A DNA stretch of 57,367 nt, counting the filler, from Dimargaris cristalligena (taxonomy: Eukaryota), in NCBI GenBank assembly GCA_003614675.1. It is 2 parts of 2 records of this genome, joined end to end, with 100 filler letters (N's around TTAATTAATTAA, not from the genome) between each part and the next. Parts side by side here need not be neighbours in the genome. Positions count along the whole stretch, not along the records: positions 1 to 28,678 come from ML002498.1; positions 28,779 to 57,367 come from ML002499.1. One strand, 5' to 3'. Each line of letters opens with the position of its first letter. Position 1 is the first letter of the stretch. The notes beneath the pieces are model-generated. The model had not been told where the DNA came from, did no database searches, and saw nothing but the letters and a program-made list of their open reading frames with translations. This document shows positions 2,979-46,698 of this stretch, in pieces. The position numbers and the translations under genes were made by a program.

Positions 2979-4762
2979 ATGAGAAGCCTCATTCTGTTCT
3001 TGAGCGTTCCACTGGCTCAACTTAGCCTACCCGTGCCGGCTCAGCCTATCATCGACCCCTGGGAAAAACTACCCAAGGAACTCCGCGAAAATGTGGTGGG
3101 CACTCTCTCGCTGCCAGATCTAGTAGCCGCAGCTAATGTCAACCTGGAGTGGAGGGCCACCATTTTGGAGGAGCCCACGCGACTGAATAAGCTTGTAAGT
3201 ACGCAATTTCATTATACAGTTTACCACTGCCCAAGCCCCAGACACACTCAGCCAGTGAACGCCCTAATCGCCTGGTGTAGGTCACCCTTATTAATGGCGT
3301 GGCCCTTTTAGTGTGTGGTGTACAGGTCAGCGGAAACTATGCACATAATACTAACCATTGTGACTCTTGCAATACCACCGCCCAATTACGCAAACCGCGA
3401 AAAAACAATTTCAATTAGGCCGAAACCCGTTTTTCAGCTAACCCTCTCAGTTACTACAGCTCAGGCATCAGCGACAGTGAGGCGGATCAAAAATTGCTGG
3501 AATTTAGTCCTCTAATTGGCAACCTTGTCCGATCGATTGTCGTCCAATCCATCCATTTGAGTCTTTCTGCCCTTTGCTTTGATAAATTGGGGAATCCCGT
3601 GACTGGTCAATTTCGAGCCCCTCCCGGAGCCACACTCCCCATCCTTACATCAGCTATCCAGGATTTCAAGCCGGAACTCGAATGGCTCGACAAAAGCGCC
3701 CACATTATGAAGGTCAACGAAGGCTCCGCCGAAGTGTTTGATGTGTTTTTCCCCATTCTGGGCAAGATCCGAACGGGGGATTCCGAAAATTTAGCTCCAA
3801 TGATAAAGTACGTGTTTAGTGATACTTTCAGTAAATCTATATGTCGTCAGTTGGAACGTTGGGTGCCATCGCGCTATATCATGTTTCTAGCTATTCTCAG
3901 ATATGCCAACATGCCAAGGACTACTCCCCTATCTGACGTTGATCATATGGCCGATGCATTTAAGATATATCTGCCGGCGGTTATTCAACGCGACATAAGT
4001 AGCACATTGGGTCGAGCGATTAGTACCCTGGTAGTGCAAACCAACAATTTTCAACAGACCATGGACACCGGTCGAATAATTAAATTCGTGGATGAAGAAA
4101 CTGCCCAGAACTATGTGGGGATGGATTACACCTTCAATTTTGGTACGGCTTCATTTGCGGAAGAGAGCACTGAAACGGATTTCGGACCGGAGCATGATGT
4201 CGTGGACATGCCTCCGCCAGCCCCTATTCAATGGGAGGGTCCTTTACCTCCTATTATGCCGGCGGATATGCCAGGCTCCTCATCGATGTCACAAATGACC
4301 CCCGTACCGATTATAATCCCGGAAACTCAGAATATGGCCATTTTGGTTGCGGAAGTTCAGAAAAGACACGAACTTGTCGAAGCTCTTTCAGATCCCAAAT
4401 TTATGAGTCAGCCCCATGATATTATAGGTTACTGTGCCGTCGAGATTGGTCTTGTCAAACGCACTCTTCTCCCGGAAAATTGGACCACCCCCACTAAGGA
4501 GCGTCTCGTCGACCAGTTGAAAGGACCCGAGAGCGAAATTCCACAACTTTGCAGTAGGCTTTTCACATCGAATGACTATCCCATTTTCCTGGATACTGAT
4601 GGTGATGCCTCGGTTCGATTTTATCCGTATAATTCGGAATCCACTGAGCTAAGTACCCCTGAAGAACTTTCAACTTTACCTATTGAATTTGGGTTTATTC
4701 CTGTTACGAATGTGGCAACTGGAGAGATATTTGGTGAAGCACCGCCTGGATTCCAACTTTAA
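2979..4762 (+). CDS. Putative secreted protein with N-terminal F-box-like motif; join(2979..3194,3419..4762), ~519 aa
   Basis: Hydrophobic N-terminus MRSLILFLSVPLAQLSLPVPA. F-box-like WEKLPKELRENVVGTLSLPDLVAAANVNLEWRATI. GTAAGT donor at 3195 and TAG acceptor ending 3418 join exon 1 in frame (phase 0) to the long ORF ending 4762. Confidence 0.75.
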
Positions 4763-4899
4763 GGCGAGTATCGTTTGATGCAATTAACCTATCCTTATCT
4801 ATATATATGGAAATTATATTTTAATTTTTTTTTAAGTTAAAATATGTTTGAATTCCTGTTTAGTTCTTATTTTAAAATTATTAAAACTCGCTTCCACTC

Positions 4900-6473: not shown

Positions 6474-6616
6474 ATATGGGAGAGGTTCAACCAGGCTATA
6501 TATCGAAAAATTCATTGGATGAGTCAAAAAATGATTGGTTATGCATTAATATCTCACCTGTTTTCCCATACATATTATTCAAAATCCTATTCAGCTACAC
6601 TGAACCTCACCCATAT
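6474..6616. mobile_element. MITE-like dispersed repeat, copy B (opposite orientation to A/D)
   Basis: ATATGGGAGAGGTTCAACCAGGCT...TGAACCTCACCCATAT; 143 bp with terminal inverted repeats. Confidence 0.78.
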
Positions 6617-6959: not shown

Positions 6960-7838
6960 TCAATTGCTGGTGGTGGGGGGACTGGGGGGATGGATATTTT
7001 TATTGTGGCGGTCAAAATTATCTTTGCGAGTGAACTCTTGGTCACATTTTGGACAGGCAAAGGGCTTCTCCTTGGAATGAGTTTTTAAATGGCGGTTGAA
7101 GTCATATCTGCGCTCGAATTCGTCATGACATTTTGGACAGACGAATAGCTTGTTGGGCTTGGGCGATTTCAGCCGGCTATGGGAGGTGTCAATATCCTTT
7201 TCGGATTTCTGAGCACATAAAACGCAGGCAGGTAGTAGTGTATCGAGGCCGCGCACTTTTGAGAGGTCAGACGTGACTTGGGTGTTTTGATATACGCCAC
7301 CACATAAATTACAAGGGCGGGGCTTCAGGACAGCGAGTGTTTTGGATTGGGAGCCGCAATTGCGACTGGCCCCTAATTTCGGATGACAATTGGGGACCCC
7401 TAAAGGATCTTGATAAATTGGGCCACCCGCCTGCTTATAGTACAGGTGTTGCATTTCCTTCCACAAACTTTGGTCGTTAGGATTTAAAGGAATTCCATAG
7501 GAGTGTTCAAAGAGCTCAGGGCCGGCTGTGGTAACATGGTCATTGTCGCTACCACTACTACCCTTGGCCCTCGATTGGGAAACGCCATCCACCACCAAGG
7601 GAACAGGCTTTCCCGGCGGTTGCATTTGTGTATATTGGTCAGGTGGGAGCAATTGGTCCAAATGGCCGGCCATGTTAGCGTTTTCGGGTTCCGGGCTATT
7701 CGGGGGCCAATTAATGTACTGATACAGTTGGAGAAGTTCGAGTTCGCCGGGGTAGGAAGTTTCATTATTCTGTTCGGAAGCACAGCTGAGAGCGAGAGAA
7801 CCCAGGGTAAGTAAACCAATATAGTTTAAGGTATACAT
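6960..7838 (-). CDS. C2H2 zinc-finger protein with signal-peptide-like N-terminus, 292 aa
   Basis: First ATG at 7838 gives MYTLNYIGLLTLGSLALSCA. Two tandem C2H2 fingers FVCPKCHDEFERRYDFNRHLKTH-SKEKP-FACPKCDQEFTRKDNFDRHNKNIH with a TGEKP-like linker, plus an extra CxxC-x25-CxxC. Confidence 0.85.
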   Translation of the reverse strand: MYTLNYIGLLTLGSLALSCASEQNNETSYPGELELLQLYQYINWPPNSPEPENANMAGHLDQLLPPDQYTQMQPPGKPVPLVVDGVSQSRAKGSSGSDNDHVTTAGPELFEHSYGIPLNPNDQSLWKEMQHLYYKQAGGPIYQDPLGVPNCHPKLGASRNCGSQSKTLAVLKPRPCNLCGGVYQNTQVTSDLSKVRGLDTLLPACVLCAQKSEKDIDTSHSRLKSPKPNKLFVCPKCHDEFERRYDFNRHLKTHSKEKPFACPKCDQEFTRKDNFDRHNKNIHPPSPPTTSN

Positions 7839-8438: not shown

Positions 8439-10238
8439 CGAGAGGCACTTGCCATTGTCTATTTTATTTATTGGGGGAGGTTCACTTCGTCACCGTGGCC
8501 ACCATACAGAGAAAGTTCGGTGTTAGATAGTGGCCCATTTTCTTTTCGGATTATATTTCTCTGGTTCCACCTTAACCTCCTTACCTAGATTACATTTTAC
8601 GCCCAATCCAAAGGTCTATACGATTGGGGTGGACCTCTTCCATATTGACAATGGCAGGTTAGGTCTACAACCACCCCACCAATACTACCTTTTGGATGCG
8701 TTCGATTGTGAAAACGGACGAAAAGCACCCATATCCCTGTAGGCCAATCTAGGAATTAAACTAAGGGTATTCGCTTGGTGCAATTGTATGAAGATTGTAT
8801 AGGTGACAGACGGTTCAACCTATAAACAGGGACATTCACAGAGAGATGGATAGTAGTCCCTCAATGGGGACATAGAGCGCTAGCAATGCTACCCTCAAGG
8901 GACTACAATTTGAATTACATTTTTTAAAAAAATGGCACCCAGGCTCTCGAATGAGTAGCTTGTTTAGTTAGAGTAGTCATTTATATGGGGTAAGTTTAGA
9001 CCTGTTACATATTTAAAAAACCCTACATTTAGTGGACAAGGTTTACCTAATTAACAGAATGGCCTGTTCATTTTACCCCACCAATAACTACATTCAAGAA
9101 TTTAATAAGGCTCCAGCGAATTTTATATATTGCTACTCATTTATGTGGGACACTCTCAAAAGCCACTTCTCCTGGGCACCCACTGCGCTAGAGCGTCGAG
9201 CTTAGGGGGTGGCTTTTCAAGTAGATGTGGTGTATTAATGGGAATAGGGGAAGTACGTAGTTGGCTGGATTGGCGAAGGGAAATAGCCCTCCTGGGTTGT
9301 AGGTCAAGTGGTAAAATATAAGATTCGAGGGAATTAATTGAGCCCACTTGAAAAGTCAGCAATGCACCCAATGTACAGATGTAGAAATGTCTAGGCGAGG
9401 AATTGAGAATACTCGACCTGTAAAAAATTACAGACATTTGGAGGACAATCATTAATTCATGTGGATGGGCTTGAAGTTAGTAAAGCAATGTGGAAGACGA
9501 TTCCATCAAAATGAAGGTTGGGTCGAAGGGCAACTCTTGGCATATTCAGCTATGCCCTCACCAGTAAGGCCTCTTCTAGCTAATTAACTTTGGTTAACTG
9601 TAGGTATGCCACTTGTAGCCATCTCCTGGTTGACCGCCTTGAAGGAATTCAATGTCCGCTATAGCCCCCAGTCGGACGTATAGAGGCACCAGTGCCACTC
9701 TGACATGGGGGCAACGGTCATATCCTGGGATAGACATTACTAAAGTCAAACGACCGAATCTGCACCCCAGAAATCTAGTTTCCAAGCTCCAGCACCAGCC
9801 TGGCCACAAGCCACTCTGGGGTCACACTGGCAGGGTTTTAGGACCCACCACCCATGAGGTAACGCACTTAAACCAGGGGCTGGAACTGGCTTGCGTATTG
9901 GGACTGCCGTGTATAGCTATTGACCCGGGCTCCTATTGGCGGAGTGGACTTTCTCCGCCCCGACGGATGGTTCTATTTAGACGCATGGACGGGTGCCCTT
10001 CACACAATCACTGAGGCTTGGCTTTCCCAGCTTGACTCCATGACTCAGTCCAATGGGATACCATATACTATATATATATTGACGGATCTCGACCCTTAAG
10101 ACCAAGTCAGTAAATACTTCCAATTCTATACCCCTTTGATTCAAGCTAAGCAGACTCGCTTCTATTCACTCTCTATTTATATTTGCTTTAGTGGTATCCT
10201 TAGTTATTCGTATTGAACACCGCCTCATTTCTGTCGAA

Positions 10239-13200
10239 ATGCCCGCCGGCGTCACCCCACCAACGACGACAGGGGTTCCACCCGCGCCCGACACTCTGGC
10301 CCAAACCCTATTGTGTGCCGTATTGCATGACCACCTCCAACTACGCCGACCAGGCTGGTCATTGCATTCCGCCCTAGCTTTGGCCCAGCGGCGCTTGCAT
10401 TGGCTTCGCAGTATCGACCGAGTTTGGAAGGAATACAACTTCAATTCGACATCCGTTGCCTCTCCCTCCCAACCAACCACCCCGACTAGCGAGACTATCC
10501 GTGGTTCCGAAAAGGGCTCTCCTAGTCCCCTTTTCAAAAAACTAGACGGCCTCAAGAAACCCAAGTTCTTGAAAAAGGCTAAAGGCATGGGCTACTTTGG
10601 TCGCTCGAAAACTGTTGTCCCTATATCAGGTATTGGTCCCCCATCACCACCAGGCACCCCGCCCCTCGGGTCCTCTGTAATGCCTCAAACAGGGCTTCCG
10701 TCTCCTTATGCAAACTCGACCGGTCGGCTCACGGAAGTGGACGAACCACTGCTTCTGGAAATCGAGACGGGCTTAAAAAAATTACAGCAGGACCGCCGAA
10801 ATTTAGCCGCGTCTACCACCATCATCACCTTATATCTGGGTCTTTTGGCTCAACCCGAGGTGCGGCATGAACTAAAAGAGCACGGTGTCATCGAGGACCT
10901 CATATGGCTATATGGCAAAGTAGTGCTCCTGTTTAAAGTGGTTGACCCTGACTCACCCCAGGATTCACCTCCCCCCGACGCTAGAGACAGCGGTTTATCG
11001 GTCCGAGTGAATCTACCCAGTGAAGTAGCTGCCATCCTCTCCGTCGTCAAGATGGCCCTTGGGCAGATGTATGGGTCCAGCAAATCCGGCACCCAGCGAT
11101 CCTCTGGCACCAACCGCTCCCTGTTAGATTCGCTCGTCGATACTAGCGCGGAGAACCCCACCGCACGAACCGCTATGTACCAGACTCTCCTCCAGCGACT
11201 CGCTGATCGGACTAACTGGTACATATACGTGCTGCTGGATACCTTCGAGCCTGGTCCCATGACCACGCATCTTGCTACCAACTTTGGCCTCCGGCAGCGT
11301 GTGGTTTTGAGTACCTGCCGCGCTTGGGTTCCCGCCCAGATTGGAGCTGCGCTGCTGTTGCGGTTTCAAGCTTATTACAGCAAACTAATGGAACGTCCGG
11401 TGACTATGGCCTCGGTAAACCACCTATATTCCCCCCTGGCCTATCGATACTGGCTCGAAAATGAACGCCATAATGTATACCAACTTATTCGGATATTAGA
11501 CGGCACTGCCCCGCTGACTGAGCCATTGTCCGTGACTGCTCCTCCCCCCCATCTAAAATTACCACCCCCACAAGGGCCCGCCCCCGACCTGCCCATTGCC
11601 CTCCCCCTGGATCCCCACGCCAATTACCGGGATCTTATAAATATTTTGGTTGACCGCCATTTAGTGAAGCCTCTGGGTCGTAATACGGAAGCAGATAATC
11701 TTGCTTTTTTCATCACTTCTACTCCCGGCCCGGCTAATCAAATCCGCGGGGTCCAACTCCCCTGCAGCTTGCCGTCGGATGCCCAGGACATTCTTCAGTG
11801 GTGTGCTCGACTTTGGTACATTAGCGTCCCCTTTAGAAGGGCTTGCTATTTACAGGCTGTATTCCGTCGGGTCGAATCCCGCCAATTACCCCTGTTTTAT
11901 CTCCAAGACGCGCTAGCGGGGGCAACCCAAGCCCTACAGGCAATACCCCACCAAAACTGGTCCCATTTCGATGTAAGTCAAAACCTAAATGTGCTATCTA
12001 GCCAATTGTCCAAACAAATATAATATCCTTTTATGACCCACTACCTATTCGTAACCTTCATCCCGCTCATAACTATTACTCGTCTCCTCTATCTAAATCA
12101 TACAATATACCCTCTATTTTTTTATTGGTGTTTATGGAAACACGTAGAACGATACGATATGGACTCTGCTCTCCGGGATTTTGGACTACATTGAACGTCA
12201 ATTGACGTCGGTGCTGGCGGCCATTGACTACTATCCTAACCTGGATCATTTCAATAAAATGCCCGCCAATATCCAGGTCCGGGTGTCCCTACGGTGGTAC
12301 ACGCTTCGGACTCTTTTGGTGCTTCGTCATGCGCTAGCTCAAAATCCACTTGTACAATATTATCAGCAGGGGCAGAACGACTATACGGAGGCCCTCCGAA
12401 TCCGTATTCACCGGGCCTTCGAGCCCTGGTTCAAGTTCTGGTCCAAACAGTTTGCCCCTGGCAACCGATCGCCCTCTGAAAACACCATGGGTTTTGCGGA
12501 ACTGCTGTGTGCCATTTCCAACACTTTCCTGCTCGCTGAAAAGGCCTTTGGGTTAACCGAACAGCCCGAGTTGGCCCAACGCTGTGGATACCCTGATATC
12601 CTTAACCCGTGTACGCCATTTCTGGACATCATGCTTGGTCGGTATTTAAATGACCTGGAAGCCTGGATTTCAACCATGAAACGGCAACAAGTGGCGAGTA
12701 ATTCCACCAAGGCAGACCCTTTGGAATTGGATTTAGAACTGTGTGGCCACCTTTCCGAGGTCCTTAGCGCCGCCGGCGAGTTGTCCCTACGCGTTTTTCA
12801 AAAGTAAGTTATTATTCACGCAAACCACCTTTTTGACCGACAACAACTCTGGGGGAGATTGGTTGCTGTAGGTTTTTTGCATTTGCCACAGGCTAGAATC
12901 TCATATTTCAGGATTTATGCCCTCTACACCATCGTCTTACTTGACTATTAGATCAAAAGTGGGACCCTTGTCCCAAAAATTTACACATCTGTATGTCGCC
13001 CAAATGATCCAAGCGGTGCAGACCAAGTCCCAGGAGTGGGTCCAATCTGTTCTCAGGGTAGACCAAGCGGTGGTCCTCGGCGATGACTCATCCACAATGC
13101 TCCACACCTCATCCGCGGACGATATCCTGTGCTGTATCTTCGAACCATTTGATTTACTTAAATCGATACCCGCTCTCGACCCGGCCCTTGGGAACTGGGC

Positions 13201-15391
13201 CCGCAGCAGTCTGATGGGCATGGTCTATTACTCCCTGGACCTTTACTGCTCGGCTATGCACCAGGCGTTTCTCGATACTCTGCAGCTCGACCATCCAACT
13301 AACCACGCAAAGGGCCAGCAGGCTTCGCCAATCGTACCCCCTACTCCACCCAAGTCTAACCAATGGAAAAAGCGGATGTTTTTGGATAAATTCGTGTATA
13401 ATGTCCATCCTGCGCCGGTTGAACCGATCGCGCCCAAGCTGGTCATTGAACCAATGGCCTGTCGACCCCTGAATAACCTGTATAAAATCAGTGAACGCCT
13501 ACATGGGTTATTTTCCCCTTTTCTCCCCACACAAAGCGGGACTGCTTCTGGCGACCATCCCTTAGCCCACACCGCCCTTCACGACCACCTGTCCGATGGG
13601 CGCTATTTTGCCCATGGGTTAACCGGTAAACCCACTGAGGCTGATCGGGTGTATACGGTAATGCTGACTATTGTTCACGCCGAAGGCTTGGATACCCGTC
13701 ACCAGGGCCAGCTCCGCAACCCCTACATTAAGGTGGCCATGCCCCAAATCGGGCTTAAAATTGCCAAGACTACCACCCAACGGTCCACAGCCGTGCCCCG
13801 ATGGGACGAAGTGTTCCCGGTCTGGATCTCCGGGCCCTACATTCAGTCGGCGCTGGGGTCGGCTTCCTGCCCGTCCCACGAATCGCCTCTAATTACCCTG
13901 GCTGTATACGATCGAGACAAGATGCAGTCCAGCACCCTCTGTGGCATTGGTCGCTTCCCACTGGACCTTACCCTATATCGGGATACCACGGCGGACCTAT
14001 GGGTACCAATCAAACCACGGGGACGGGTTCTCATTCGTGTAACTTGCGATACCTCCGGAGCTGGCACGCCGACCGATAATCCCAAACCCTCTCATCTCCC
14101 GGCACTACTGCCCTTACCCCCGGATGGTGCCAAATGTGGGGATAGGACCGCCTCGGACCCCACGGCGATTCACCGGAACTATACACGCATTACCTGGCTA
14201 CTCCGTCGGACCCTTAATGATTTAATGCGACAGACCATTGAATCAATGGTACCTGCCATCCGCGTTCATTTGAGCCGCGCGCGGCTTTTAGACAACTCGG
14301 CCTTCCTGGCAAAAACGAATGGGAGCCGTATGAAGCGGCTACTGGCCACCACTCGCTTTAAGCCGTCAACAAAGACGAGGCCAACTTCTCAAATGGAGCA
14401 TCCCAACTCTGCTCAGACCGTGGAAAGCGCCCCTCTGGACGGACTATTCCAATACCTCAACCGTAATCTGGCCGTACTGTTTCAACACTGTTACCCGGAT
14501 ATTGCCCGGCCGCTCATTCTTAATACTTGGCGAGAAATCGTTTTAGCGCTGGTGGCTTCCATTTTACCTTCCCTGCCTACCCTTCTGGCGGAAACGAATG
14601 GTACCCCCTCCGAACAGAGTATTATGGGCTCCCGACGTGGTTCGGCTGGCCTATCGGGTATGCCAACATCCTCATCGCGTCCCCATATAGGCGCAATGAC
14701 CCAATCTTCGGCAGACCTATTGGTCCACCGGCGTTCTGCCAAAAACGACCTGGGTACACGAGGGTCGTTTCAGCAACTCTTTACCACAGTAGCCTCCACG
14801 TCGACCAAAGCCCTTTCCAAGCCGTCGAAACGCCGGATCCAGCTTGGCCCAGAGGAATGGCAGTTTATGGTGGACTGCCTTGACGCCATCCAGGACTTCT
14901 TTACCGGTGACGGTGACCCCGCCGATGGAAATAGTCCCCCGACCATTATTACGCACGCGCAACTTCAGGTCCTCCCGGAATTCAGAGAGTGGCATTTCAT
15001 CCGGGAATGGTACTTTGCCCCCACAGCCCAGCTAATCCGCGAATATATGCATGCTTTAGGGCGCCAACTGGATATACTCAAACAGTGGAACCATCTGGCC
15101 GATCACCCCGGGCGTACGCCCCTTTCGGCCGGCTCCGCCGGACGGGGAGCTTGGAATAATCCTGAAATGCTGAATATCGAATTGGTTGACTACGACCTTG
15201 GTTCAGCCGGTGGTGGCTCCTCCACTGAACTGCTTCAGTCTAGGGACCGAGGCCCCGCGCTGGACAGCGACCCCAAATGGCTACGTTCCCAAACTGATTT
15301 GATCCTCCGAATCCTCCAGACCCGGCACGGAATTGATAAAACCGCCACCGACTTTGTCTCTAGTCACTACACTAGCACTGAGTTTACTTAG
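10239..15391 (+). CDS. C2-domain / Munc13-homology (MHD)-like protein; join(10239..11972,12148..12803,12952..15391), ~1609 aa
   Basis: Three long ORFs join in frame via GTAAGT donors (11973, 12804) and TAG acceptors (12147, 12951). C2 domain: LTIVHAEGL...NPYIKV...PRWDEVF...LAVYDRD...CGIG...LWVPIKPRGRVLIRV. The MHD2-like segment LFQYLNRNLAVL...LILNTWREI resembles fungal Ync13/Yor296w-type proteins. Confidence 0.85.
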
Positions 15392-17100: not shown

Positions 17101-17132
17101 ATTACCTGGTTATATATATATATATATATATA

Positions 17133-20100
17133 GAAGATTCTGACATTCAAATTAATAATCCAGTTGATACACAACTTGATAATGTGGCCCCCTGTGTCCT
17201 TACCTGTACCACCGAGGAGTTCCAAATCCCAGAGTACCTTACGTAATGGATGGAGGAACACCACATCCCACACCTGGCCAACAGCAGCTGGGTTAATTGG
17301 TCTATTCAACAAGGACTGCAGTACCCAACACTAGTCACTAAACTACCACACCTCAACCCTTTTACAGCCATTAAAATGGCACAAACCAACATGGCCACTG
17401 ACAAAACCCTAGTGAAATACCAGTGATACTTTAGACATAACATCCAAGCCATTGGTGACTTAGCACAATCAATTGACAAAAGGGAAGACCCTACATCCAT
17501 CCATAATTGTTTGGCCCACTTGTTTGACTTCCAGCTCAACTTTTTCATGGAGTGTATAACTGAATGCTACCATCAGGCTGCCAGGGCTATTAAACTCCCT
17601 ACCAAACTCTAACAGCAGGTCCCTTTCATTGCGAATGAAGACCAGGACTTCCTCTTTGGTATAGCCATCAAAGAACAGTTGGAACAAGTAAATGCACAAC
17701 AATTCCAACAGCATCTATTAGCCCAAATGGTGTGGGGAAATATGGGATGTTGTGACCATTTTGGAATAGGCAACTGAGGCTATGGCTGCAAATTCAATCC
17801 TGGAAGACAAGACCAAAGTCAACAGCCACCAACTGAAATAACAATGGGGGTCCAACACCAACCCCCTACAGGCAACCAGTAGCCCTTTTAATAGCAAACT
17901 ATGTGATGCCAGTTGACCAGATCCCTCTTGGGGGGGCAACTTAGCTACTTCTACCCCCAATGGAGGAAGATAACCACAGACTGTTGGGTCCTCTTGGTAG
18001 TTCAAAATGGGTACTGATTATAATTCCAGACACCACCTGAACCAGGAGGACATGGAAGCAGTGGACAGAGCCCTGCAGAAACTATTAGCCTGTGGGGCCC
18101 TGGAGGCAGGCCACGAATTAGCCTAACCCTTTGCCTCAAACATGTTTACCAAGCAGGAGGCCTCCCAAAAAACAGCCCTGCTTAGATATATGCCACATTA
18201 ACTAGCTTATTCAACTGGAGCATTTCAAAATAGAGGGATTACTAGTCTTGAGCTCTACCATTCTACCAGGGAATTACATGCCCAAGCTGGACCTAAAGGA
18301 TGCTTACCTGATGATCCCCATCCACCCAAGGTCATGGAAGTACTTAATAGTACAATTCTACCAGTGATTATACTAGTTCCAATGCCTACCATTTGGACTG
18401 AGCAGCTCTCCCCAGGTATTTACCTGGATGATCAAAGCAGCTCTAACACCCCTACACCTATAGGGGATCTGCCTGTCATTTTATCTTGACAATATTTGTG
18501 TACTAGACTGGATAGCTAAGGAAACAAAATGACATATCCAATGGGTATGGCAATATCTGGAGAAACTGGGGTTTCTGTTCAATGACAAGAAATCCATCAT
18601 GATTCCCAGTTAAGTTCAGGAATTCTTGGGATTCAGCCTCAATACACAGGCTATAGCTATTACCCTACCCAAAACAAAGGTACAAATAGTCAAAGAAGAC
18701 AGTCACCTTCTCCTCACCAAAATAGTAACAGCCTGCAAAGCAGTGGCAATTGTGGGGACCATACCCTCTTGCATTCTGGCAATACAGACCAGTCTATTAA
18801 ACACCTGGTACCTTCAATGAGGCATTCACCAAGTGGTACTACAAGGGGGCTAGAATGGACTGTGTCCCATAAATAAAGATACAACAATAGCCCTCCATTG
18901 GTGGAATACTCTACCACCAGATGCCAACAGAAAACCCCTAGGCTTGCCAAAGTCACCTGAGGTAACAGTATTTACTGATGTGTCTGAAAGCAGTTTGGGG
19001 TTTTACTCCAATACTGCTACCACATATGGTCACTGGGACAAAAACAATCAGAACCAATCCAACAACTACCATAAACTGAAGGTGATTCTAATGACCCTGC
19101 AATACCAAAGGATATGTTGGAAGAGCAAGTGCCTCTTAATTTAGTCGGACAATACCACAGCAATCAAGAATGTGAACCAGGAAGGCTCCCCAGCCTATCC
19201 ACACCTTTATCATCTAGCCAAACAGATTCATGGGTACTGCCATCAACACCAGATCAAAATCCGAGTCTAATTTATTACAGGTCTGGAGAATCAGACAGCA
19301 GACATACTCAGTTACCTGAACATTTTGTATCAGGATGAGGAGATACCACAGGCCATTATACCTCTCCTTTGATGCCTGTATGGGTCCATTCACTTAGACC
19401 TCTTTGTGTCCCACAGAAATGCAAAGTGTTGCCACTTTTTTACTCAATTCCCAGAATAAGGAGTGATAAATTTCAATGCTTGGATAATTCCCTGGCCCAA
19501 GACTGGGGGATACGCCTCTCCCCCATGGAAATTGATACCACTGGTCATTCAGAAACTCCACTGAGAACAACTCCATTAACTGATACTAGTGACACCAAAT
19601 TGGCCAAGCCAACCCTGGTTCCCAACACTATTCCCATGTGACAGGGAATCCAATGGTGGTCAAGAAAGTCCACCAGAAGTTCAGATGGTTTGTGTGGCCC
19701 TTATCCGCAACTGGCTGGGGAAAATGGCCATCAAACCCAAAGCTATTGACAACATTATATGCAGTCGGCAGTTGTTAACTTGGAAAACTTATGAATATGC
19801 CTGGCAAAGCTTTGACACTTGGTACCAAACATGAGCATATGATCCAGCCAAGTACAATTATCCTCACCTAATAAATTACTTAGTGGATATGGCCCAAAAC
19901 TGAACCTGGACAACAATCTGTATTCACCAGTCAGTAATTACCTCCACTTGGAAATTATTTTATCCAAACAACCCACCAGTAACTGAAGACCATTTCCTAT
20001 AACAATTCATGCAAGGGGTCCATAAAAAACAACCCTTAGTCCCTAAACCACCAGTTTGGGACGTCAAACAGGTCCTAGATTACTTACAAGGCATGAGGCC

Positions 20101-20640
20101 AATGGAGGACTTGACAATTTGCCAATTAAGGCTCAAAACCCTGGGCTTATTAGCTCTAGCAACAATGTGGCACCTGCATAGTGATCTTACTAAGATTACT
20201 TTAACAAATACTCAATTTGAACCCAACTGTGAATCACCAATCCTAGTGAATTTAGTGGCCATTCAGGTCAAGGAGGGAGATTACAAACAATTAAGTCTCC
20301 GGGCCCTACAGGAAGATCCAACCATCTGCCCAGTCTGTCATCTGGCTAAATAACTGGAATGGTCACTGCCTCTACAGCGCCTTCCACAGGACCAACAAAA
20401 TCCATTTGCAGTATTTAATGGTCACCACAATGCCTCAGGGGATACTCTAGCCCAATGGCTTAAATCATTGTTACAAGAGGTAGAGATTGATGCATCCTAA
20501 TTTACAGCCCACTCATTTCATGTGGAGTCATCAACAGTGGCAAAGCTCCATGGAGTAAAGGATGAGGATATCCTACAATGTGACAATTGGTCCTCAGTAA
20601 CCCCCTTCCAATGTTATTATTACTGGCCATAACCATCCCT
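17133..20640 (+). mobile_element. Degenerate DIRS1-type tyrosine-recombinase retrotransposon, copy 1 (gag-like, RT, RNase H, MT-like, YR)
   Basis: Gag-like frame with LFG motif (~17140-17880). Pol start LGGQLSYFYPQWRKITTDCWVLLVVQNGY. RT motifs KLDLKDAY, LPFGLSSSP, YLDN (18482-18493). RNase H VFTDVS and SDNTTAI. MT-like LDLFVS...YASPPW. YR LLALATMWHLHSD...CPV...AHSFH...W...F..YY. Many in-frame stops; boundaries approximate. Confidence 0.9.
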
Positions 20641-22608: not shown

Positions 22609-22616
22609 TATATAAA
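22609..22616 (+). promoter_or_regulatory. Putative TATA box of the subtilisin-like gene
   Basis: TATATAAA about 240 nt upstream of ATG 22849. Confidence 0.45.
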
Positions 22617-22848
22617 TACGTGGACATTCCACTATCCATTGACTCAATATCGCCACTACTACTCGGTTTACTAGTTTAATACATTGTTACATATTCTCTT
22701 TAACCCGAGATCTCTTATTTCATTGCCATATTTCTGTCACACTTCTTGTATCCGCTGCTGTTGACCGCGCGGGTATCATTAGTCCTCTAAAGCCATCCGG
22801 AATCACCGTCACCCAATTATCCACCTTGAATCCAAACGCTACGACACC

Positions 22849-25437
22849 ATGCATCGCTCACTGAGCCTCTGGGGGCTCCTTTCGTTGGCGGTCCTAACCG
22901 CTAATTCGGGCTGTTCCGGTGAGAGCGTCATATCGGGGTCCTACCTGGTTCAGTTCGACACTAGCGATGCCAGCCAAGCCACCGGTACCGAACCATTCGA
23001 GCTGTTTTCTTCACAAATGGCCAAGTTGAAAGTCCCTTTCACGTTTGCCAGGAACTACACTACGGTCGTAAAAGGCGCACATATTAAACTGGACGACAAG
23101 TATTCCGCCATGGCCCAAAAGCTCTCCATCGTCTTGAACATGTCCCCCAACCAAGTCCTAAACCAATCGACCACCATCCACGCCTCGACCATTCCGGGCT
23201 TGACACTCGAACCGAAGGAAAATGTCTATCTCAAAGATAACTACATCGTGGCAACCCAGATTGAAAAAAATCTTTACGGTCGGGGCGTTAAAATTGGGTT
23301 CGTGGACAGCGGCCTGGACTACCGCCATCCGATGTTCGGTGGCTGTTTCAAGACCTGCAGTGGGGCCCGGGTGGTTGCCGGCTATGACTTTGTTGGCGAT
23401 CAATTCACCGGATACAACACCCCTAAGCCGGACAAGGACCCTTTGGATAAATGCAATGGTCACGGCACCCATGTGACCGGTATCGCAGCGGGCAATGTTG
23501 GCGTGTTCCAGGGCGCCGCTCCCCAAGCCCAAATTGGCGCCTATAGGGCCATAGGCTGTGGGGGTTCGACCACAGTCGATCTTCTGATGGCGGCAATGGA
23601 GATGGCCTACACTGACGGTATGAACATCATTAACGTGTCCCTCGGCGTTTCGGCAGGCTCGCCGAATTCCCTTTTGTCGCGCATGGCGACTCAGATGACC
23701 AGCAAGGGGGTGATTGTTGTTGCCGCGGCTGGAGATGAAGGTCAATACTCCCTGTTCACCGTCAACTCACCCGGGGTGGGAACCGGTGCAGTGGCCGTTG
23801 GAAGTTTCGACCAACCCTCCTTTTACTCCAAGTCTATCAATGTGGATAGTACCCCCGGTAAAAACTTCCCCCGGTCGTACACCCAGTCCCCCGAGCTGGC
23901 CTTTAACTTCAGTAAGCAAACCCTGGTTCTGGCCACAGACGCCCAAAATGCGTGGGTCGGCTGTCGCCCCATTACGGCGAACGTGAATGGAAAAATTGCT
24001 CTGGCCCAAAACGGCGTTTGCTCCATCGAAACCAAAGCGGCCAATGCGCAGGCGGCCGGGGCAGTTGCCTTGATTGTGTACGACGTCACCTGGAAAGTCA
24101 TCGATATCCCAGCCTTTAAGAGCAAGGGCCTTATCCCAACGGTGATGGTTGAGTACTCCGCTGGCACATTTCTTCTTTCCGCCCTCCAATCCGGTCAACA
24201 AGTAATCATTTCGAGCGACGACAATATGACTGCTCGTAAGCAAACGGAAAAAGTTGGTGTATCCGACTTCTCGTCCTGGGGACCCGGTCCCGATTTATCA
24301 CTCAAACCCAATCTCATTGCTCCGGGTCGTTACATCTATTCAGCCCTACCACTCGAAATGGGCAGCTACGGGATCGCTACCGGCACGGCCATGTCGAGCG
24401 CGTTCGTTACGGGGGCATTTGCTCTCCTGCGGGAGTTTAACCCTAAGTTGACTAGTGAGCAATACGTCATGATGTTGCTGCCGAAACAGGACCTGCAACC
24501 TTCGCGGTATACCAATTTACACTGCTCACCAGTGCAACAAGGCTACGGGGCCCTCCAAATGCAGAATGTCTTTAATTCGCCCGATTTTTTCTTTTCCTAC
24601 AACTCTAGTCTGGGCGATAACCAAAATGTGGATAACGGAAAGAACTTCAATTTTGAAATTCAATTCAAGGTCGATTCATATGCAAAATACCTGACTTCAT
24701 GGGGCTGGCTCACCTCCGAGGACGTCACCATGTTCACCCCTAGCGGAACCCTCATCGCGCCACGCCTTCGCGTTAACGGGACCTTTACGCCTAAAAATAT
24801 CGAGCCCCTTCCTACTTGGACCACGCCTAATTCGAACTTTACTCACCGTATGACCCTCACCCTCAACGATATGGCGCCGAGACAATGGATCTATGGAGGG
24901 TATATTACGTTTAACTTCCTTAGCGGTACCCGGTCAATCCGGTTCACCTTCCCTTTCCTGGCCATGGACGACAACTTTTCCCAAATTCCCATTGTACCAC
25001 CGAGCACCACCACATACTACCCCCAGCTCATTGATTCCGTTTCGTTGAGCGCAATTCCGGCATCTACGCAGACCACATATCAGCTATCTAAGAAGAAATA
25101 CCCGGCGTTCCAGTATTTCCTCCAGTTTACCACCGATCTGCTGCTCATTTATGTGGTACGGGTGGATCAAACGAGCCAACCGCGCTACCTAGTGGACCAG
25201 GGGCAACAGTCGTTTTTGGCCCACAGTTTTATACCTGGCTCGGACTTCCGCAATTTCGTATGGTCCGGCAACATGGTTAAAACGGCTAGCAATGGTGGTG
25301 CTGACTCGCTCACCGCCGCCCCCAACGGTTCCTACCAATTCCGGGTTCAGTGGAAGCGACCTCTGGCCGATTATGCCTCCCGCAAAGATAGCGATTTTAT
25401 TATTTGGCAGTCACCCACATTCAAGCTTAGTCGCTGA
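22849..25437 (+). CDS. Secreted S8 subtilisin-like protein with PA domain, probably catalytically inactive (Ser->Ala), 862 aa
   Basis: Signal peptide and I9-like prodomain. Motifs GVKIGFVDSG (Asp), NGHGTHVTG (His), PA insert VNGKIALAQNGVCSIETKAANAQAAGAVALIVYD, FSSWGP...LKPNLIAPG. The nucleophile motif reads GTAMSSA instead of GTSMAxP. Confidence 0.93.
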   Translation: MHRSLSLWGLLSLAVLTANSGCSGESVISGSYLVQFDTSDASQATGTEPFELFSSQMAKLKVPFTFARNYTTVVKGAHIKLDDKYSAMAQKLSIVLNMSPNQVLNQSTTIHASTIPGLTLEPKENVYLKDNYIVATQIEKNLYGRGVKIGFVDSGLDYRHPMFGGCFKTCSGARVVAGYDFVGDQFTGYNTPKPDKDPLDKCNGHGTHVTGIAAGNVGVFQGAAPQAQIGAYRAIGCGGSTTVDLLMAAMEMAYTDGMNIINVSLGVSAGSPNSLLSRMATQMTSKGVIVVAAAGDEGQYSLFTVNSPGVGTGAVAVGSFDQPSFYSKSINVDSTPGKNFPRSYTQSPELAFNFSKQTLVLATDAQNAWVGCRPITANVNGKIALAQNGVCSIETKAANAQAAGAVALIVYDVTWKVIDIPAFKSKGLIPTVMVEYSAGTFLLSALQSGQQVIISSDDNMTARKQTEKVGVSDFSSWGPGPDLSLKPNLIAPGRYIYSALPLEMGSYGIATGTAMSSAFVTGAFALLREFNPKLTSEQYVMMLLPKQDLQPSRYTNLHCSPVQQGYGALQMQNVFNSPDFFFSYNSSLGDNQNVDNGKNFNFEIQFKVDSYAKYLTSWGWLTSEDVTMFTPSGTLIAPRLRVNGTFTPKNIEPLPTWTTPNSNFTHRMTLTLNDMAPRQWIYGGYITFNFLSGTRSIRFTFPFLAMDDNFSQIPIVPPSTTTYYPQLIDSVSLSAIPASTQTTYQLSKKKYPAFQYFLQFTTDLLLIYVVRVDQTSQPRYLVDQGQQSFLAHSFIPGSDFRNFVWSGNMVKTASNGGADSLTAAPNGSYQFRVQWKRPLADYASRKDSDFIIWQSPTFKLSR

Positions 25438-37880: not shown

Positions 37881-38931
37881 TTAACCAATGACGAGCTGGT
37901 CACCGTCGATTTCGTACTGGGGAATTTCCAGGTTCAGGGGGGCGGGGCCCTTACGAATACGGCCGGAGATGTCGTAGTGGGAACCGTGGCAGGGGCAGTA
38001 CCAGCCGCCGAACTCACCAGACTCACCGACGGGCACACAACCCAAATGGGTGCAGATACCCAACATCACGAGCCACTCGGGCTGCTTCGTGCGGTCGGCA
38101 TCAGTCTGGGGATCACGCAGGGCAGCGATGTTCACGTTGTTGGCTTCGTTGATCTCGGCCTGGGTACGGTGACGGATGAAGACGGGCTTGCCACGCCATT
38201 TAACAATGACGTTCTTGCCCTCGGGGATAGTGGTGAGGTCAACCTCGGCCTTGGCCATAGCCAGCACATCGGCGGAGGCACTCAGATTGGTCAGGAATTC
38301 GTGGACGGAGTTCTTGGCAACGGCGGCCGAGATAAAACCGGTACTGCCGACCATGAAGTAGGCCAGGTTGCGGTTGGTGTAGTCGCCGGACTCCTTGCGG
38401 TAGTCCGAGAAGTCGGGGACTTGGGTGGTACCGCTACCGGCGGCGTAGTTGGAGGAAAGCCGGGTCTGGTAGTTGAACGAGGCATTGGTGGCTAGTGCAT
38501 GGTACACGTGGGGAGGGCATACGGGGATATAGACAGAATGAGGGGGTTAGAACTCAAAGAAAGGGGGTGATAAATCATCTAATACAGGAACTTCCGTCCT
38601 TGGGGTCAGAAAACTCCAGCATAAGGAAGTAATCCGGCTCTTTGAAAAGGCCTGGTGAATCGCCTACGGCCAGGAATGCAGCTAGATTCAAGGGATAGGG
38701 GGATAATCACAACGTACCAGTGATGCCGGTCTTGAAGATCTGGTGGCCAAAGGCGCCCAGCTTGACGTTCTGCTTGCGGGCAGCGGCGGACAGCACCGCG
38801 GGCTTGGCGGGGGTGAGCTTCAGGCTGGCCTGCTTGGAGAATTTGGACCAGATCTGGGCCTCCTGGGGAGTGGTGACGAAGGTCTTGTTGGCCAGCGAGG
38901 CGCTGGATTTGACGGCGTTAGTGAAAGACAT
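37881..38931 (-). CDS. RIP1: Cytochrome bc1 Rieske iron-sulfur subunit; exons 38931-38718 and 38491-37881, ~274 aa
   Basis: CTHLGC and CPCHGS ligand motifs, GRIRKGPAPLNL, SASADVLA, basic mitochondrial presequence. GTACGT..TAG intron in frame. Confidence 0.97.
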
Positions 38932-42939: not shown

Positions 42940-44891
42940 TGGAAAAAAGTAGTGAGGGGAGAAAAGAGAGGTGAGGGGGGTGAGATAAAAGCAAATAAGG
43001 AGTGGTTTCTGTTAAACGAGTTGTCGGCATTTGCTGTTAATGATAGGATATTTAGATGGCACCCGCTTGCCTATTTATAACCAACCGGTGATTTTATTAA
43101 CCAGATGCAGTGTAAGTGGCTCCTAACTATCCCTTCAAAATGGACTATCTTCATGTGGCCATTTCAAAACAGTAATGGGGGGATACTATTCTAGTCGGTG
43201 CTGCATATTAGGAATTGGCCAGACAATGGTTACGACATCCTGATGCTCCCTTTGTTGTCTATATAAATGGCTTCATGGATGTCTATCGCAATTGAAATAT
43301 CTACAGGACAATTGCCACTGGACCATGGTTAGGCATAATGAATAGGCGGTATGGCCTAAGGTACCACCTGCGGCACCTAGTCTTGGGATAGGGCTACAAA
43401 CGGGACTATTAACTGAAGGCTTCTACATAGTAATATTTTCATGACGACAATGCCGAAAAGCGTCCTGGTTTTCCTGGTATGTTTTCGCCCAAGGATCATC
43501 GGACCAGCAGCGACAGCTAGACCCTTCCTTGTTGTCCGCTACATGCCTTATTGGGGGAAATGAATCCGCCTGTCGGCCATTGTAATGTACCGCTGATGGC
43601 TCCCGTCAAACCCCACCAGTTCCCCTTAACCATCGGCCAGACCATTGTCTAGGCATAGTATAGCGACGACCAAATGCTACTGCAGCCCTAATAGGAAATG
43701 TAAACCTTTCCGGGCTTCGGCTATGGAATTAAACCAATGGATGGACCGGGACTAACTGGTATTCATTCAAGTACAATGGTGATTGGACAGGTTAATTAAA
43801 TCACTGACGGTTTACTTTTGGCATCGGCGGAGACTAGGGAGGAGAATGGTAAGTCTGGATAGACTGTAGTCTAGTGTCTGTGCCGTGCTTTCATGAATTT
43901 GATGGCAAACTGGTATCCCGGAGCAATATTCACACCGTCGCAGTCACCATGGTTCTTCAGAATGCCCCTACTGCTTTTGGGCCGCAGATACACAGCATAG
44001 GTCGGTTTCATTAGTTAGTTGGGTAGAAGGCACCCTCCTTTGTTGTCCCGTGGCTTTGCCGTCTTCCTAGACCGCGGGGTGCTTCCGAGACTAGTGGTTA
44101 GATATATGACGGGCGTTTATTGGATAATAGGGCGATTTTAAATATGAAGGAGTGAATGCTGAAGAAGTTCCTACATCTATAATGTAAGCATTCTATCCAA
44201 ACTCCCAGAATGGCTTGATTGACATCTTTAATCTGGAAGTACACTATTACAGGCCGCTACCACGATCTATTTTTATTACTACCACCGTACAGGTGAAATC
44301 CAATCCAATTGCATGTAGTTTTAAGTGTGCCTTGTATAGTTTAACGGAAGGATCAAGTCTATAGCAAAAAGTGACATCTCCCCAGCAATCGGATATTTCG
44401 TTATACATCCTCTCTGTACCACAGCTATATTATTTTAATACTTCATTCTACTCATAGTCAATCTATTTACCCAATGATTTATTGACCTCTGAGGCGGGGA
44501 AGCCGGGCCTCTCCACTCTATCTGGATAAAAATATTACTTCATTTTAGAAATTGGCTGCACCCGTACAATAAGCTTATGAACGAGTGAACGGACGAGCCA
44601 TTAATTTGACGACATTTTATTAACAAGACCCGACCATTATTATAAATAATAGGCTACGATCGGACCACGTGAAAAACAAACGAGGGTCTTGCGGGTCACT
44701 CGAGGTCTCAGGTGGCTTGTATCAACACGGTAAAGGCGAGGGATCGGCTAGCTATCCAGCCCCAGCTTACATAAAGCATCGTTACCGAGTGCGGAGACCC
44801 CCCCCCCCCTCCGGTAAATTCCGGCTATTGCAACCCACTCATTAACATCACTTTGAAACCCGGTTGGAACTGTCCAATTAGGCCCTTCCAG

Positions 44892-46698
44892 TCACGCTAA
44901 AGGGGCCAGTGGTGCTGTATAGGGCTGGGGATTAGGACTAAAATGGGCCATCTGTTGAAGATCAGCGAGATAGTCAGGCTCCAGGTCCCGCCAGAAAATG
45001 GTTGAGTCCAACCGGCGGGGGGCCCAAGTGGCAGTATTGGCCGGTTGGACCACCCAACGACCCAAATCCGCTTCGGCGGTGATCTCGCCGGGCTTAAAAG
45101 CCGTGGCCAATACCGATACACCCATTTGGTTAGTATTGGTCAGATACAACTGCTCCATGAGCGGAAGCTGAAGGTAATCCCATACGACTCGATCATCCGG
45201 AGTGCAGTTCCACAGCTGGCGCAGGGCATTAGCACCCCGGGGCAGTCCGGTCGTCCGCATAAAACTCACTAGTCGGCACTGACTGTCGCGCACTAAAAAG
45301 GGCGATAGACCGACTAATTCCCGGTCCACTAAGCGGGACAGCGACGCCATATGTCCCGGCTCCTGGGCCACGGCGGCCAAAAGGAGGGCTAAACGGAGCA
45401 TGGCCAGATAGTCGCATTTGTACCCATAAATAGTGTCCCACAGGGCGTCGATTTTCTTAATTTCGACCAAAAATTCCATCAACACGGTGAACCGGTGCGT
45501 GGTGGACAGCCGGGTCATGGCGAGAACCACGATATTTTTAAATAACCGGCCATGGAGTTTTCGCAAAGCAATCCCGTCTCCCTCGGGGGTGATTCGCTCA
45601 CCTCTAATCAGGCCCATTACCCAACCCAGTTCCGAAGGGGTCCAGCCTTGCAGGCCCATACTAAGCAAGGATGGGTCAGTCAGGGCCCGAATTAATGTCA
45701 CGATATGGGAACCATCGGGCTGATCATCGATGAGCGCGAGCAGAGGCAGTCGGTTCCGCAACACCGAGACGGGCAGTCGATCAGGGCTCACGAATCGCCA
45801 CACCTCCTTTTGAAAAAGGGGATGGTCCTGGTTGGTCTTCAGATACTGGTAGTACCGAAGGGTGGTCGACTGGCTCACGGTACGTACATAGTCAGACATG
45901 CCTCGAAGGGAATGGGAGGTCGAGGACCATTTGGAGTAAGCGGAATAGAATATACTGCCGAGTAACTGTTGGCGAATGATTTGTCGCCAGGCCTGGATGG
46001 TTTCGCGAGATTCCATCACGGACAAATTTCTCGTGTTTGATAGCTGCAGACCGCTTAGAAATGCTGGGTAGAGGTGCTGGGGAGCCAAGAGATAGTTAGG
46101 TACCGAATGGATAGGCATATCAGTAGATTGGAGGGTTAATAAGGAGTGTCGAGGGTGGTTAAATCTCCTGGAGGTGAATCAAACAGGTATATTCCACTAA
46201 GAGGAGTTCGAAGAAGACCTTCCTCCAATTGAGCTATATACCTACCGTATAATATCCGCTCTGGCTGCTTGAAACGAGAGCTGCCAATCGTTTAGATGTT
46301 CGGTACAAAGGACCACAAGCACCGAGATAGGCATAGTCTACGATCATTTCGAGAATTTCCGTTGGAAGACAGTTTAATTGACGTATCTGGTCCAGGCCTG
46401 GTTTCTTTGTCGAATGCTTGGGATAGCCACTGGATTCTACATCAGAATAACTATCTGAGGACTGGTAGGCTGTTGTCCCAGCGACTTCCTCAGGCAAAGT
46501 ACTGGATAATACGGCAGGTTCTAAATTCATCTGATACTGTGAGCCAGTCAGGCTAACGTCCGCTATAGATGGCACTTCATTGGACTGTGTTTGACTTCCC
46601 AAATGTAACCCCGGAGCAGCGCGACTTGGTTGAGCTATAAAACATATAGTTACGATATGAGCAATTGATTTAACAAGCTCACCATGTTGAAACTTCAT
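44892..46698 (-). CDS. Putative secreted protein with F-box-like motif; exons 46698-46246 and 46076-44892, ~545 aa
   Basis: N-terminal hydrophobic stretch (SIAHIVTICFIAQPSRA). F-box-like LNCLPTEILEMIVDYAYLGACGPLYRTSKRLAALV. GTAGGT donor at 46245 and a CTAAC-preceded CAG acceptor ending 46077 give a phase-0 in-frame join. Confidence 0.72.

Follow-up and report, generated by a model that had tools for sequence, protein, structure and literature searches.

Parasite-encoded F-box proteins such as Agrobacterium VirF and Legionella AnkB have been proposed to hijack the host SCF. Ordinary cellular F-box proteins, to our knowledge, carry no signal peptide. In the sections of the reports available to us, the SSGP-71 F-box-LRR genes of the Hessian fly encode a signal peptide, their products bind wheat Skp1-like proteins, and the F-box is needed for their activity (PMC4617103, PMC7330099). 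For the Ralstonia RipG/GALA type III effectors, part of the same literature proposes that the F-box hijacks host SCF (PMC4617103). Published tables already list F-box proteins among the predicted secretomes of other early-diverging fungi. As far as the accessible portions show, the Rhizophagus clarus candidate NLS_30765 is a predicted secreted F-box-like protein for which SCF interference has been proposed (PMC4746824), and supplement file 9 of a secretome study lists two F-box-like Mortierellomycotina orthogroups, OG0000176 and OG0000338 (PMC9391592).

The DNA analyzed here is from Dimargaris cristalligena, which parasitizes other fungi through haustoria; we refer to the whole 57,367-nucleotide stretch, joined from two records with filler between them, as the window. 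The available text of one report gives the biotrophic haustorium as the route by which Dimargaritales parasitize fungi (PMC9866270), and a single supplement row puts the predicted secreted share of D. cristalligena proteins at ~11% (815/7456; PMC9391592). A hand count of rows in that supplement gave zero D. cristalligena members for OG0000176. The Dimargaris genome papers, in the parts seen, treat proteases, chitinases, and secondary metabolites; the term F-box is absent from their main texts. Molecular control of living fungal hosts by biotrophic mycoparasites is almost unstudied. We found no paper on the family described below.

Gene A and its paralogs

The first-pass annotation of the window had proposed two two-exon genes, gene A (2979-4762, + strand) and gene B (44892-46698, - strand), and inspection of the sequence confirmed that both pairs of open reading frames are present where it placed them. 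Gene A is a real gene: the public protein P0001 (519 amino acids, 72 + 447) has the identical junction, 3194/3419. Exon 1 (2979..3194, +) consists of 72 codons that match P0001 residues 1-72 and encodes a signal-peptide-like stretch followed by an F-box. With the F-box Leu at codon 31 and the exon end at codon 72, the phase-0 intron lies 41 codons past the Leu, as annotated. The intron (3195..3418, +; 224 nt) has a GTAAGT donor at 3195 and a branch-like ACTAAC at 3350, with the next AG at 3418 and none between, and is the same in the public model. Exon 2 (3419..4762, +) encodes a conserved all-helical body without a fold match. An alternative donor at 3277 and acceptors at 3437, 3450, 3459, and 3464 were set aside because conservation among the paralogs begins with the first residue of the exon that starts at 3419. 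Alignment of the paralog models places breakpoints at the gene A intron column in three paralogous loci, which weakly supports conservation of the intron position across the family. A signal-peptide-bearing zinc-finger protein is encoded 2 kb from gene A.

When 1.84 billion proteins were searched with a profile built from five close sequences, 15 were retrieved; 14 carry the name D. cristalligena, and the fifteenth is a bacterial-type repeat protein that lies at the threshold. The gene A family comprises 14 sequence clusters, all from D. cristalligena, with identity down to ~20%; gene A counts among some 12-14 paralogs in this species. The members have in common an N-terminus that resembles a signal peptide, an F-box that follows it directly, and a single conserved body made up of helices, although P0025 apparently lacks the F-box in the alignment of family members. 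The search was anchored on the gene A body and is blind to other bodies. A word-indexed search with a 12-sequence alignment returned three known members only and is uninformative on other species; a metagenome scan for family loci gave 216 pattern matches with none confirmed, and the leads from Atlas look-ups were all under 0.9. The secreted F-box proteins of early-diverging fungi described above were not among the family profile matches.

The F-box and predicted Skp1 binding

The N-terminal part of the gene A family is an F-box. In gene A it is located at 3060..3167 (+; residues 28-63, with Leu-Pro at 31-32), as judged from Pfam, the family profile against the PDB, and the structural model. 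For single genes the Pfam models give 17.8 bits (E 0.003) for gene A and 14.2 bits (E 0.038) for gene B, both under the Pfam cut-off; for gene A the assignment was confirmed at family level. The family N-terminal profile was built from 8 parts of genes picked by whole-protein or body homology, leaving out P0011, P0017, and P0025, which have long or degenerate heads. Against the PDB it matched 25 sequences at E<=10, 20 of them F-box proteins, including the top 17, with FBXO42 as the best match (E 2.5e-5). Pfam F-box models (PF00646/PF12937) match seven of the eight N-terminal parts at E<=1 (best 7.3e-7). Among 22 family models, 8 match at E<=1; most single F-boxes are under the curated cut-off, and one locus exceeds it at full length (P0015, 23.9 bits; P0024, 20.7 bits). 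Across paralogs of 20-35% identity, Leu-Pro-x-Glu, Val, and Trp are retained at their positions. In the gene A model the F-box forms helices 33-42, 45-54, and 56-79 (block pLDDT 72-95); fold searches with the whole model listed no F-box protein significantly.

The predicted complex of the gene A F-box with Skp1 scored 0.47 versus 0.02 for the best of three controls, with at least 80% of contacts agreeing between runs and a partner pLDDT of at least 67. Of 78 solved pairs, 51 attain the mark applied to this score, as do 2 of 108 mismatched ones; in a eukaryotic calibration it is attained by 39 of 65 solved pairs for which no similar older complex exists and by 2 of 126 that are unrelated. Passing scores up to 0.60 account for only 5 of the 78 solved pairs, yet for all 4 of the passing mismatches among 180. 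A metagenome record (L033) supplied the Skp1, which thus stood in for that of the host, and since Skp1-F-box complexes have already been solved, the pass may reflect likeness to those complexes. The prediction lends weak support to the binding of Skp1 by the gene A protein.

A signal-like N-terminus

The putative signal peptide of gene A spans 21 codons (2979..3041, +) and was assigned by alignment and by a custom heuristic with author-set thresholds, which is distinct from SignalP. The gene A cleavage site is non-canonical, with Pro at -2, and fails the strict rule of the heuristic; in close paralogs the aligned position is occupied by a canonical site. Nine of 13 family loci pass, compared with 24 of 999 internal background windows, and nine of ten pass among the loci whose model reaches upstream of the F-box. 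The three loci besides gene A that fail have models without the N-terminus or with a different one. The signal cores are short, frequently contain Pro or Gln, have Ala-x-Ala-type ends, and carry little positive charge, while the 19-residue hydropathy is 1.65-1.77 in four of ten loci. By this heuristic the gene A family appears to have a signal-like N-terminus. The annotation had described signal-peptide-like stretches in both genes: that of gene A is a putative signal peptide with a non-canonical site, and that of gene B is doubtful, as the public model splices the stretch out.

The helical body

The body encoded by exon 2 of gene A is all-helical, conserved in every member, and non-repetitive in the model. 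Fold searches with the model gave no significant match (none at E<=0.001 in Foldseek against the PDB and viral structures; best Z 5.0); the 519-residue model was searched unsplit, and a known fold may still sit in a single domain. A first structure prediction, from 5 sequences, had been poor (pLDDT 42). A Pro-rich insertion (4100..4306, +; residues ~300-368), modeled at low confidence, is absent or short in most paralogs. It is followed by a C-terminal domain (4319..4627, +) with a weakly ankyrin-like helix pair, invariant Cys residues at 411 and 450, and a terminal beta hairpin. In profile searches of the PDB, 5 of 11 weak matches (E 0.2-1.5) were ankyrin-repeat proteins, Kidins220 and CLPB being counted as such, all on one stretch of the profile. 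In Pfam searches with 23 models, neither ankyrin repeats, as in F-box proteins of the AnkB-like and giant-virus type, nor any LRR family gave a match. The Cys pair could form a disulfide of the kind seen in extracellular proteins. The family proteins showed no host-entry motif.

Gene B

As first annotated, exon 1 of gene B (46246..46698, -; 151 codons) encodes a hydrophobic stretch, an ~80-residue low-complexity linker, and an F-box-like motif (46267..46374, -; residues 109-144). The F-box Leu is codon 111 and the exon ends at codon 151, which upholds the claim of a phase-0 intron 40 codons past the Leu. This intron (46077..46245, -) has a GTAGGT donor at 46245 and a branch-like CCTAAC at 46100, after which the first AG is at 46077; the annotated acceptor at 46077 is not that of the public model, P0007, in which the intron extends to 45993. 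P0007 also removes a 48-nt in-frame segment (46635..46682, -; GTGAG...TAG) that is either the core of a signal peptide or an intron. The segment is 29% GC versus 46-71% in five other signal-coding stretches of the window, and gene B passes the signal heuristic only when it is retained. The hydrophobic stretch may be a 48-nt intron, and the product of gene B may be an ordinary cytosolic protein.

The gene B motif gave Atlas feature matches to F-box clusters, all under 0.9, and no match in the PDB. With the family head profile the gene B head ranked second best of 1134 window fragments (E 0.41), and exon 1 scored 3.9 bits, equaled by 7 of 1000 shuffles. Exon 2 (44892..46076, -) encodes a body without detectable kinship to the gene A family, and the sole relative found is the same locus. 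Against the family this body scored -1.9 bits in hmmsearch (166 of 1000 shuffles equal) and P 0.2 in hhalign, and its in-register score was 21 versus 110-193 for four held-out distant members. Its best alignment fell near the family register, equaled by 8 of 300 shuffles and 6 of 74 natural decoys, and P0007 did not match the family at all. The profile, hhalign, and in-register tests do not support membership of gene B in the gene A family. Nor is the layout the same, as had been claimed, since the F-box lies ~8 residues past the putative signal in gene A and ~80 in gene B. Gene B is probably an F-box protein gene with an intron after the F-box, and the best explanation is a separate F-box gene that is at most a very remote relative of the gene A family.

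Proposed mechanism and rival explanations

We lean, if only just, towards the gene A family being secreted F-box proteins that act as host-delivered SCF adaptors in the manner of the Hessian fly SSGP-71. The N-terminal signal would direct the protein through the parasite secretory pathway to the haustorium, and its removal would leave the F-box at the new N-terminus. The mature protein would enter the cytosol of the host fungus by a route that the model leaves unspecified; we know of none established from a haustorium into a fungal host. There the F-box would bind host Skp1-Cullin1 and the helical body would bring host proteins to the ligase for ubiquitination, a role that is assumed, as the body has no known fold. 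The family would have expanded as whole genes were duplicated and diverged, with a single ancestral intron retained behind the F-box. Secretion, host entry, and substrate recruitment are steps that we infer only. The effector idea of the first-pass annotation survives in that a signal-peptide-like, F-box-containing family exists in a haustorial mycoparasite; it does not survive in its breadth, as the family is built around gene A alone and has one body.

That annotation had envisaged a fixed signal and F-box exon placed before unrelated substrate-binding exons, with genes A and B as two products. The near-identical phase-0 intron positions, 41 and 40 codons past the F-box Leu, are a coincidence of ~0.3% for one random intron (by rough arithmetic, and noticed post hoc), and the two bodies have, as annotated, no significant alignment. 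However, a single homologous body is common to all 14 family clusters. Paralogs more alike in the F-box are also more alike in the body (Mantel rho 0.55, 40 of 5000 permutations; rho 0.45, 225 of 5000, with close paralogs removed), and the F-box part is no more conserved than the body, which leaves exon swapping unsupported in the family as searched from the gene A body. Gene B exon 1 is also twice the length of that of gene A, matches the family head weakly, and may lack the signal, and its alignment near the family register, should it be real, would indicate that the whole genes are distantly related instead. We consider such swapping unlikely. The F-box and signal evidence would also fit a decoy that enters the host and ties up Skp1, blocking host SCF without substrate recruitment, and the body matches no known substrate-binding fold; yet a conserved, folded body of 350 residues at ~20% identity over a dozen paralogs better fits diversified target binding, and we think a decoy quite unlikely.

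Two further readings question delivery or Skp1 binding itself. The N-terminus may target an organelle or membrane for the parasite's own SCF, the F-box staying in the parasite cytosol, on the model of human FBXL4 at mitochondria. The high hydropathy of four loci is in keeping with this, but the short cores with Pro or Gln, Ala-x-Ala-type ends, and little positive charge are not, and a species-restricted, fast-diverging family would be unusual for housekeeping ligases; we regard this, too, as quite unlikely. Least probable of these is that the proteins are extracellular or interface proteins in which the F-box has lost its binding to Skp1 and persists as a structural relic. Mostly sub-threshold scores, the apparent loss of the motif in one member, and the invariant Cys pair would be expected of a relic, whereas retention of the Leu-Pro-x-Glu, Val, and Trp positions and the specific retrieval of solved F-boxes by the family profile would not.

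Returning to host-delivered adaptors, our results suggest that a D. cristalligena family sends proteins into the host to redirect protein degradation. An F-box is functional only in the cytosol or nucleus, so a secreted F-box is a built-in reporter of host delivery, and it makes effector injection by a haustorial mycoparasite directly testable in yeast. If true, SCF hijacking would have arisen independently once more, in addition to its origins in bacteria, viruses, and gall midges, and with a body whose fold, searched as an unsplit model, is unmatched in the PDB. A wider picture, which we hold to be rather doubtful, is that Dimargaris sends hijacked intracellular regulators into fungal hosts via the haustorium, among them at least a dozen secreted SCF adaptors that bind substrates through a new fold, B-like F-box genes on the same ancestral signal and F-box exon, and signal-bearing zinc-finger proteins like that near gene A. 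Were this so, no ubiquitin-hijacking effector family would have been described earlier from a fungus that parasitizes fungi, and some route would have to carry proteins from one fungus into another.

Comparison with known systems

The gene A family shares its F-box sequence profile and three-helix arrangement with FBXO42, Fbw7, Skp2, and Dia2, but these carry WD40, LRR, Kelch, or TPR domains, and none matched the gene A body in the fold searches. RipG/GALA, VirF, and AnkB differ in being bacterial, delivered by type III or IV secretion, and without an ER signal peptide or introns; AnkB joins an F-box to ankyrin repeats, and the weakly ankyrin-like stretch of gene A may be an echo of these. NLS_30765, OG0000176, and OG0000338, as far as their sources could be consulted, likewise place an F-box-like domain in predicted fungal secretomes, but they belong to plant-associated or soil lineages and are a single candidate or undiscussed table rows. 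As described in the available sections, SSGP-71 of Mayetiola destructor is similar in coming from a eukaryotic parasite, in forming an expanded, divergent family with some members that lack the F-box, and in combining a secretion signal (putative in the gene A family) with an N-terminal F-box and a C-terminal region presumed to bind targets. SSGP-71 proper has ~13 C-terminal leucine-rich repeats, which the gene A family lacks, is injected into wheat with insect saliva, and has demonstrated Skp1 binding, whereas the gene A family has an unrelated helical body and a fungal host and is described here from sequence and prediction. No homology between the two was detected, and their resemblance is convergent.

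A gene A family in D. cristalligena

Gene A (2979-4762, +) consists of exon 1 (2979-3194, +, 72 codons), an intron (3195-3418, +) with a GTAAGT donor, ACTAAC at 3350 and no AG up to 3418, and exon 2 (3419-4762, +). The 3194/3419 junction agrees with the public model, whose 519 residues divide as 72 + 447. The long branch-to-acceptor distance is like that of two other introns read in the window (~35950-36110, -, and ~38480-38700, -); in all three a CTAAC branch-like site lies ~55-75 nt 5' of the acceptor, which is longer than the fungal norm. The identical database protein is a D. cristalligena hypothetical protein with the UniRef label 'F-box domain-containing'.

Exon 2 as a query found two paralogs, and a profile of five close sequences searched against 1.84 billion representatives gave 15 matches, 14 of them named D. 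cristalligena. The fifteenth, a 1043-aa repeat protein (E 9.5e-4), is unrelated. As some of the 14 are fragments, the family comprises about 12-14 loci. Aligned members are 19-65% identical to gene A and share the whole body, with invariant Leu121, Gly130, Leu159, Pro184, Pro222, Cys411, Gly416, Cys450 and Gly467. No members outside D. cristalligena were seen with this narrow five-sequence profile, the sensitive search; a later broad profile missed even known members.

In a 12-sequence structure model (mean pLDDT 72.7, pTM 0.72) the body is confidently predicted to be all helix, residues 300-368 form a Pro-rich insertion without order, and a hairpin lies at the C-terminal end; fold searches with this model returned no significant match. 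Five of 11 weak sequence matches to the family profile were ankyrin-repeat proteins, at one stretch (E 0.2-1.5), a possible likeness that we treat only as a lead.

The F-box and Skp1

Taken singly, the F-boxes of gene A and of gene B (44892-46698, -) score under the Pfam cut-off; for gene A, the family strengthens the assignment. A profile of eight N-terminal parts, with three long or degenerate heads excluded, drew 25 matches from the PDB at E<=10. F-box proteins account for 20 of these and for all of the top 17; the other five are FliG chains. The F-box proteins included FBXO42 (E 2.5e-5), Fbw7, Skp2, Dia2, FBXL3, FBXO4 and FBH1. Pfam F-box matches 7/8 head parts and 8/22 full-length family models, one locus exceeding the cut-off. 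The structure model places helices at 33-42, 45-54 and 56-79.

A complex of residues 24-82 with the Pfam-confirmed Skp1 of a metagenome locus (L033), predicted with alignments left unused, scored 0.47 against 0.02 for the best of three controls (contact agreement between runs at least 80%, partner pLDDT at least 67). The mark for such scores was reached by 51/78 solved and 2/108 mismatched pairs; passes at <=0.60 comprised only 5/78 solved pairs and all four passing mismatches (of 180). Among eukaryotes it was reached by 39/65 solved pairs without a like older complex and 2/126 unrelated pairs. The prediction weakly suggests Skp1 binding by the gene A F-box; its pass may come from resemblance to Skp1-F-box complexes that are already solved.

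A signal-like start

Our own signal heuristic, which asks for a hydrophobic 10-mer, a run free of charged residues and small residues at -3 and -1, passes 9/13 family loci, a non-independent count of paralogs. Gene A fails on one point only, proline at -2; P0022, P0023 and P0009, three public models, fail with the N-terminus absent or different. Among window proteins the heuristic passes 3/3 expected secreted and 0/3 expected cytosolic, with a background of 24/999 internal windows. The F-box starts at most ~15 residues after the inferred cleavage site. Retention of the signal at 20% identity suggests selection. At another locus (P0025/P0016) signal and body are kept and the F-box is apparently lost.

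A second combination of signal and nuclear regulator lies 2 kb from gene A: the single open frame at 6960-7838 (-) has a signal-peptide-like start, passing our heuristic, and two C-terminal C2H2 zinc fingers (PF00096, E 6e-7). This exact protein was absent from the searched collection, so its public model differs or is missing.

The intron in paralogs and in gene B

Intron position among paralogs was read indirectly, from breakpoints between alternative protein models. At three further loci, such models have a break at precisely the alignment column that opens gene A exon 2: P0010 leaves out 30 residues and continues from that column, the partial P0016 has its first residue there, and in a separate comparison the similarity of P0009 begins there; the breakpoint occurs in 2/8 model pairs compared. 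These breakpoints suggest that the intron after the F-box is probably ancestral in the family; they argue weakly for its conservation.

For gene B, the annotated 46246/46076 junction fits the donor at 46245 and the first AG past a branch-like site (46077, -), which is in frame, but the public model P0007 takes 45993 as acceptor. P0007 also removes 46682-46635, a segment that would encode the signal's hydrophobic core. Reading these 48 nt as an intron is favoured by their GTGAG and TAG ends and by a GC content of 29%, lower than in five stretches of the window that code for signals (46-71%) and in three of its introns (44-46%). The retained form nevertheless has a plausible signal and, by our heuristic, a canonical cleavage site, and public models elsewhere also drop short in-frame pieces of conserved regions (P0021 lacks 16 residues of P0010). 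A gene B signal peptide stands at about even chances. The database search found no gene B relatives past its own locus, and gene B did not match the family body; an in-register test gave 21 points, equalled in 8/300 shuffles and 6/74 natural decoys, against 110-193 for four held-out family members.

Genomic setting

Ordinary genes make up the surroundings in this fungal window: subtilisin, a CDK8-type kinase, a Rieske protein, Rab and prohibitin, along with relics of retroelements. Where these names go further than the Pfam family, they are our own reading. Broken reverse transcriptase and tyrosine-recombinase pieces (28840-31289, +; 20003-20353, +) are probably DIRS/Ngaro-type relics. A large multi-exon gene (10140-15391, +) encodes a helical C2-domain protein, by our reading Munc13-like. 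In the small secreted protein at 33306-33719 (-), a Lys-Arg site precedes a hydrophobic stretch rich in Gly and a tail that is basic. The ORF at 27740-28726 ends in an N run (about 28680-28726), read as an assembly gap. The secreted subtilisin at 22783-25437 (+; S8 and PA domains) fits the subtilase expansion reported for D. cristalligena. Dimargaritales, according to PMC9866270, parasitize Mucoromycota and some Ascomycota via an appressorium and a biotrophic haustorium.

Proposed mechanism and alternatives

A family protein would be secreted to the haustorium with removal of its signal, enter the host cytosol and bind host Skp1-Cullin1, its helical body recruiting host proteins to the ligase. 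We rate this whole course as just better than an even bet. Of its elements, the family, the F-box, the conserved body and the signal-like start are shown, whereas secretion, host entry and substrates are inferred. The protein might instead be a Skp1 decoy, an anchored ligase belonging to the parasite itself, or an extracellular protein carrying a relic F-box.

The first-pass annotation had proposed a fixed signal and F-box exon before swapped substrate-binding exons. Its F-box-to-intron distances, 41 codons in gene A and 40 in gene B, are correct, but this match does not show swapping; an ancient F-box exon common to both genes, distant kinship or coincidence could each account for it. In every family case the intron parts the F-box from one and the same body. 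F-box and body similarity co-vary (rho 0.55, 40/5000 permutations as high; 0.45 and 225/5000 with non-redundant paralogs) and the F-box is not better conserved than the body, both measures coming from one alignment; together these results argue against swapping. The annotation's observation is partly confirmed and its interpretation partly supported: the gene A finding is larger than it saw, gene B and swapping weaker.

Comparison with known systems

No description of the gene A family was found in the literature covered, at the level of listings and abstract beginnings, a scope that takes in a minority of subscription papers. The term 'F-box' is absent from the main text of each of PMC9866270, PMC6784888 and PMC9391592 and, in the part available, from a 2026 mycoparasite effector paper (PMC13188720), whose main text does not mention Dimargaris. 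As a prediction, a fungal signal with an F-box is not unprecedented, given one predicted secreted F-box candidate in Rhizophagus clarus (PMC4746824) and two orthogroups in Mortierellomycotina (PMC9391592, supplementary table, file 9).

Further comparison systems are the bacterial F-box effectors VirF and AnkB, and FBXL4. The gene A family would act in the manner of SSGP-71 from the Hessian fly and RipG from Ralstonia, as described in PMC4617103 and PMC7330099, but belongs to neither, having no LRRs and no homology to them; the apparent F-box loss in P0025/P0016 resembles one SSGP-71 member reported there without an F-box.
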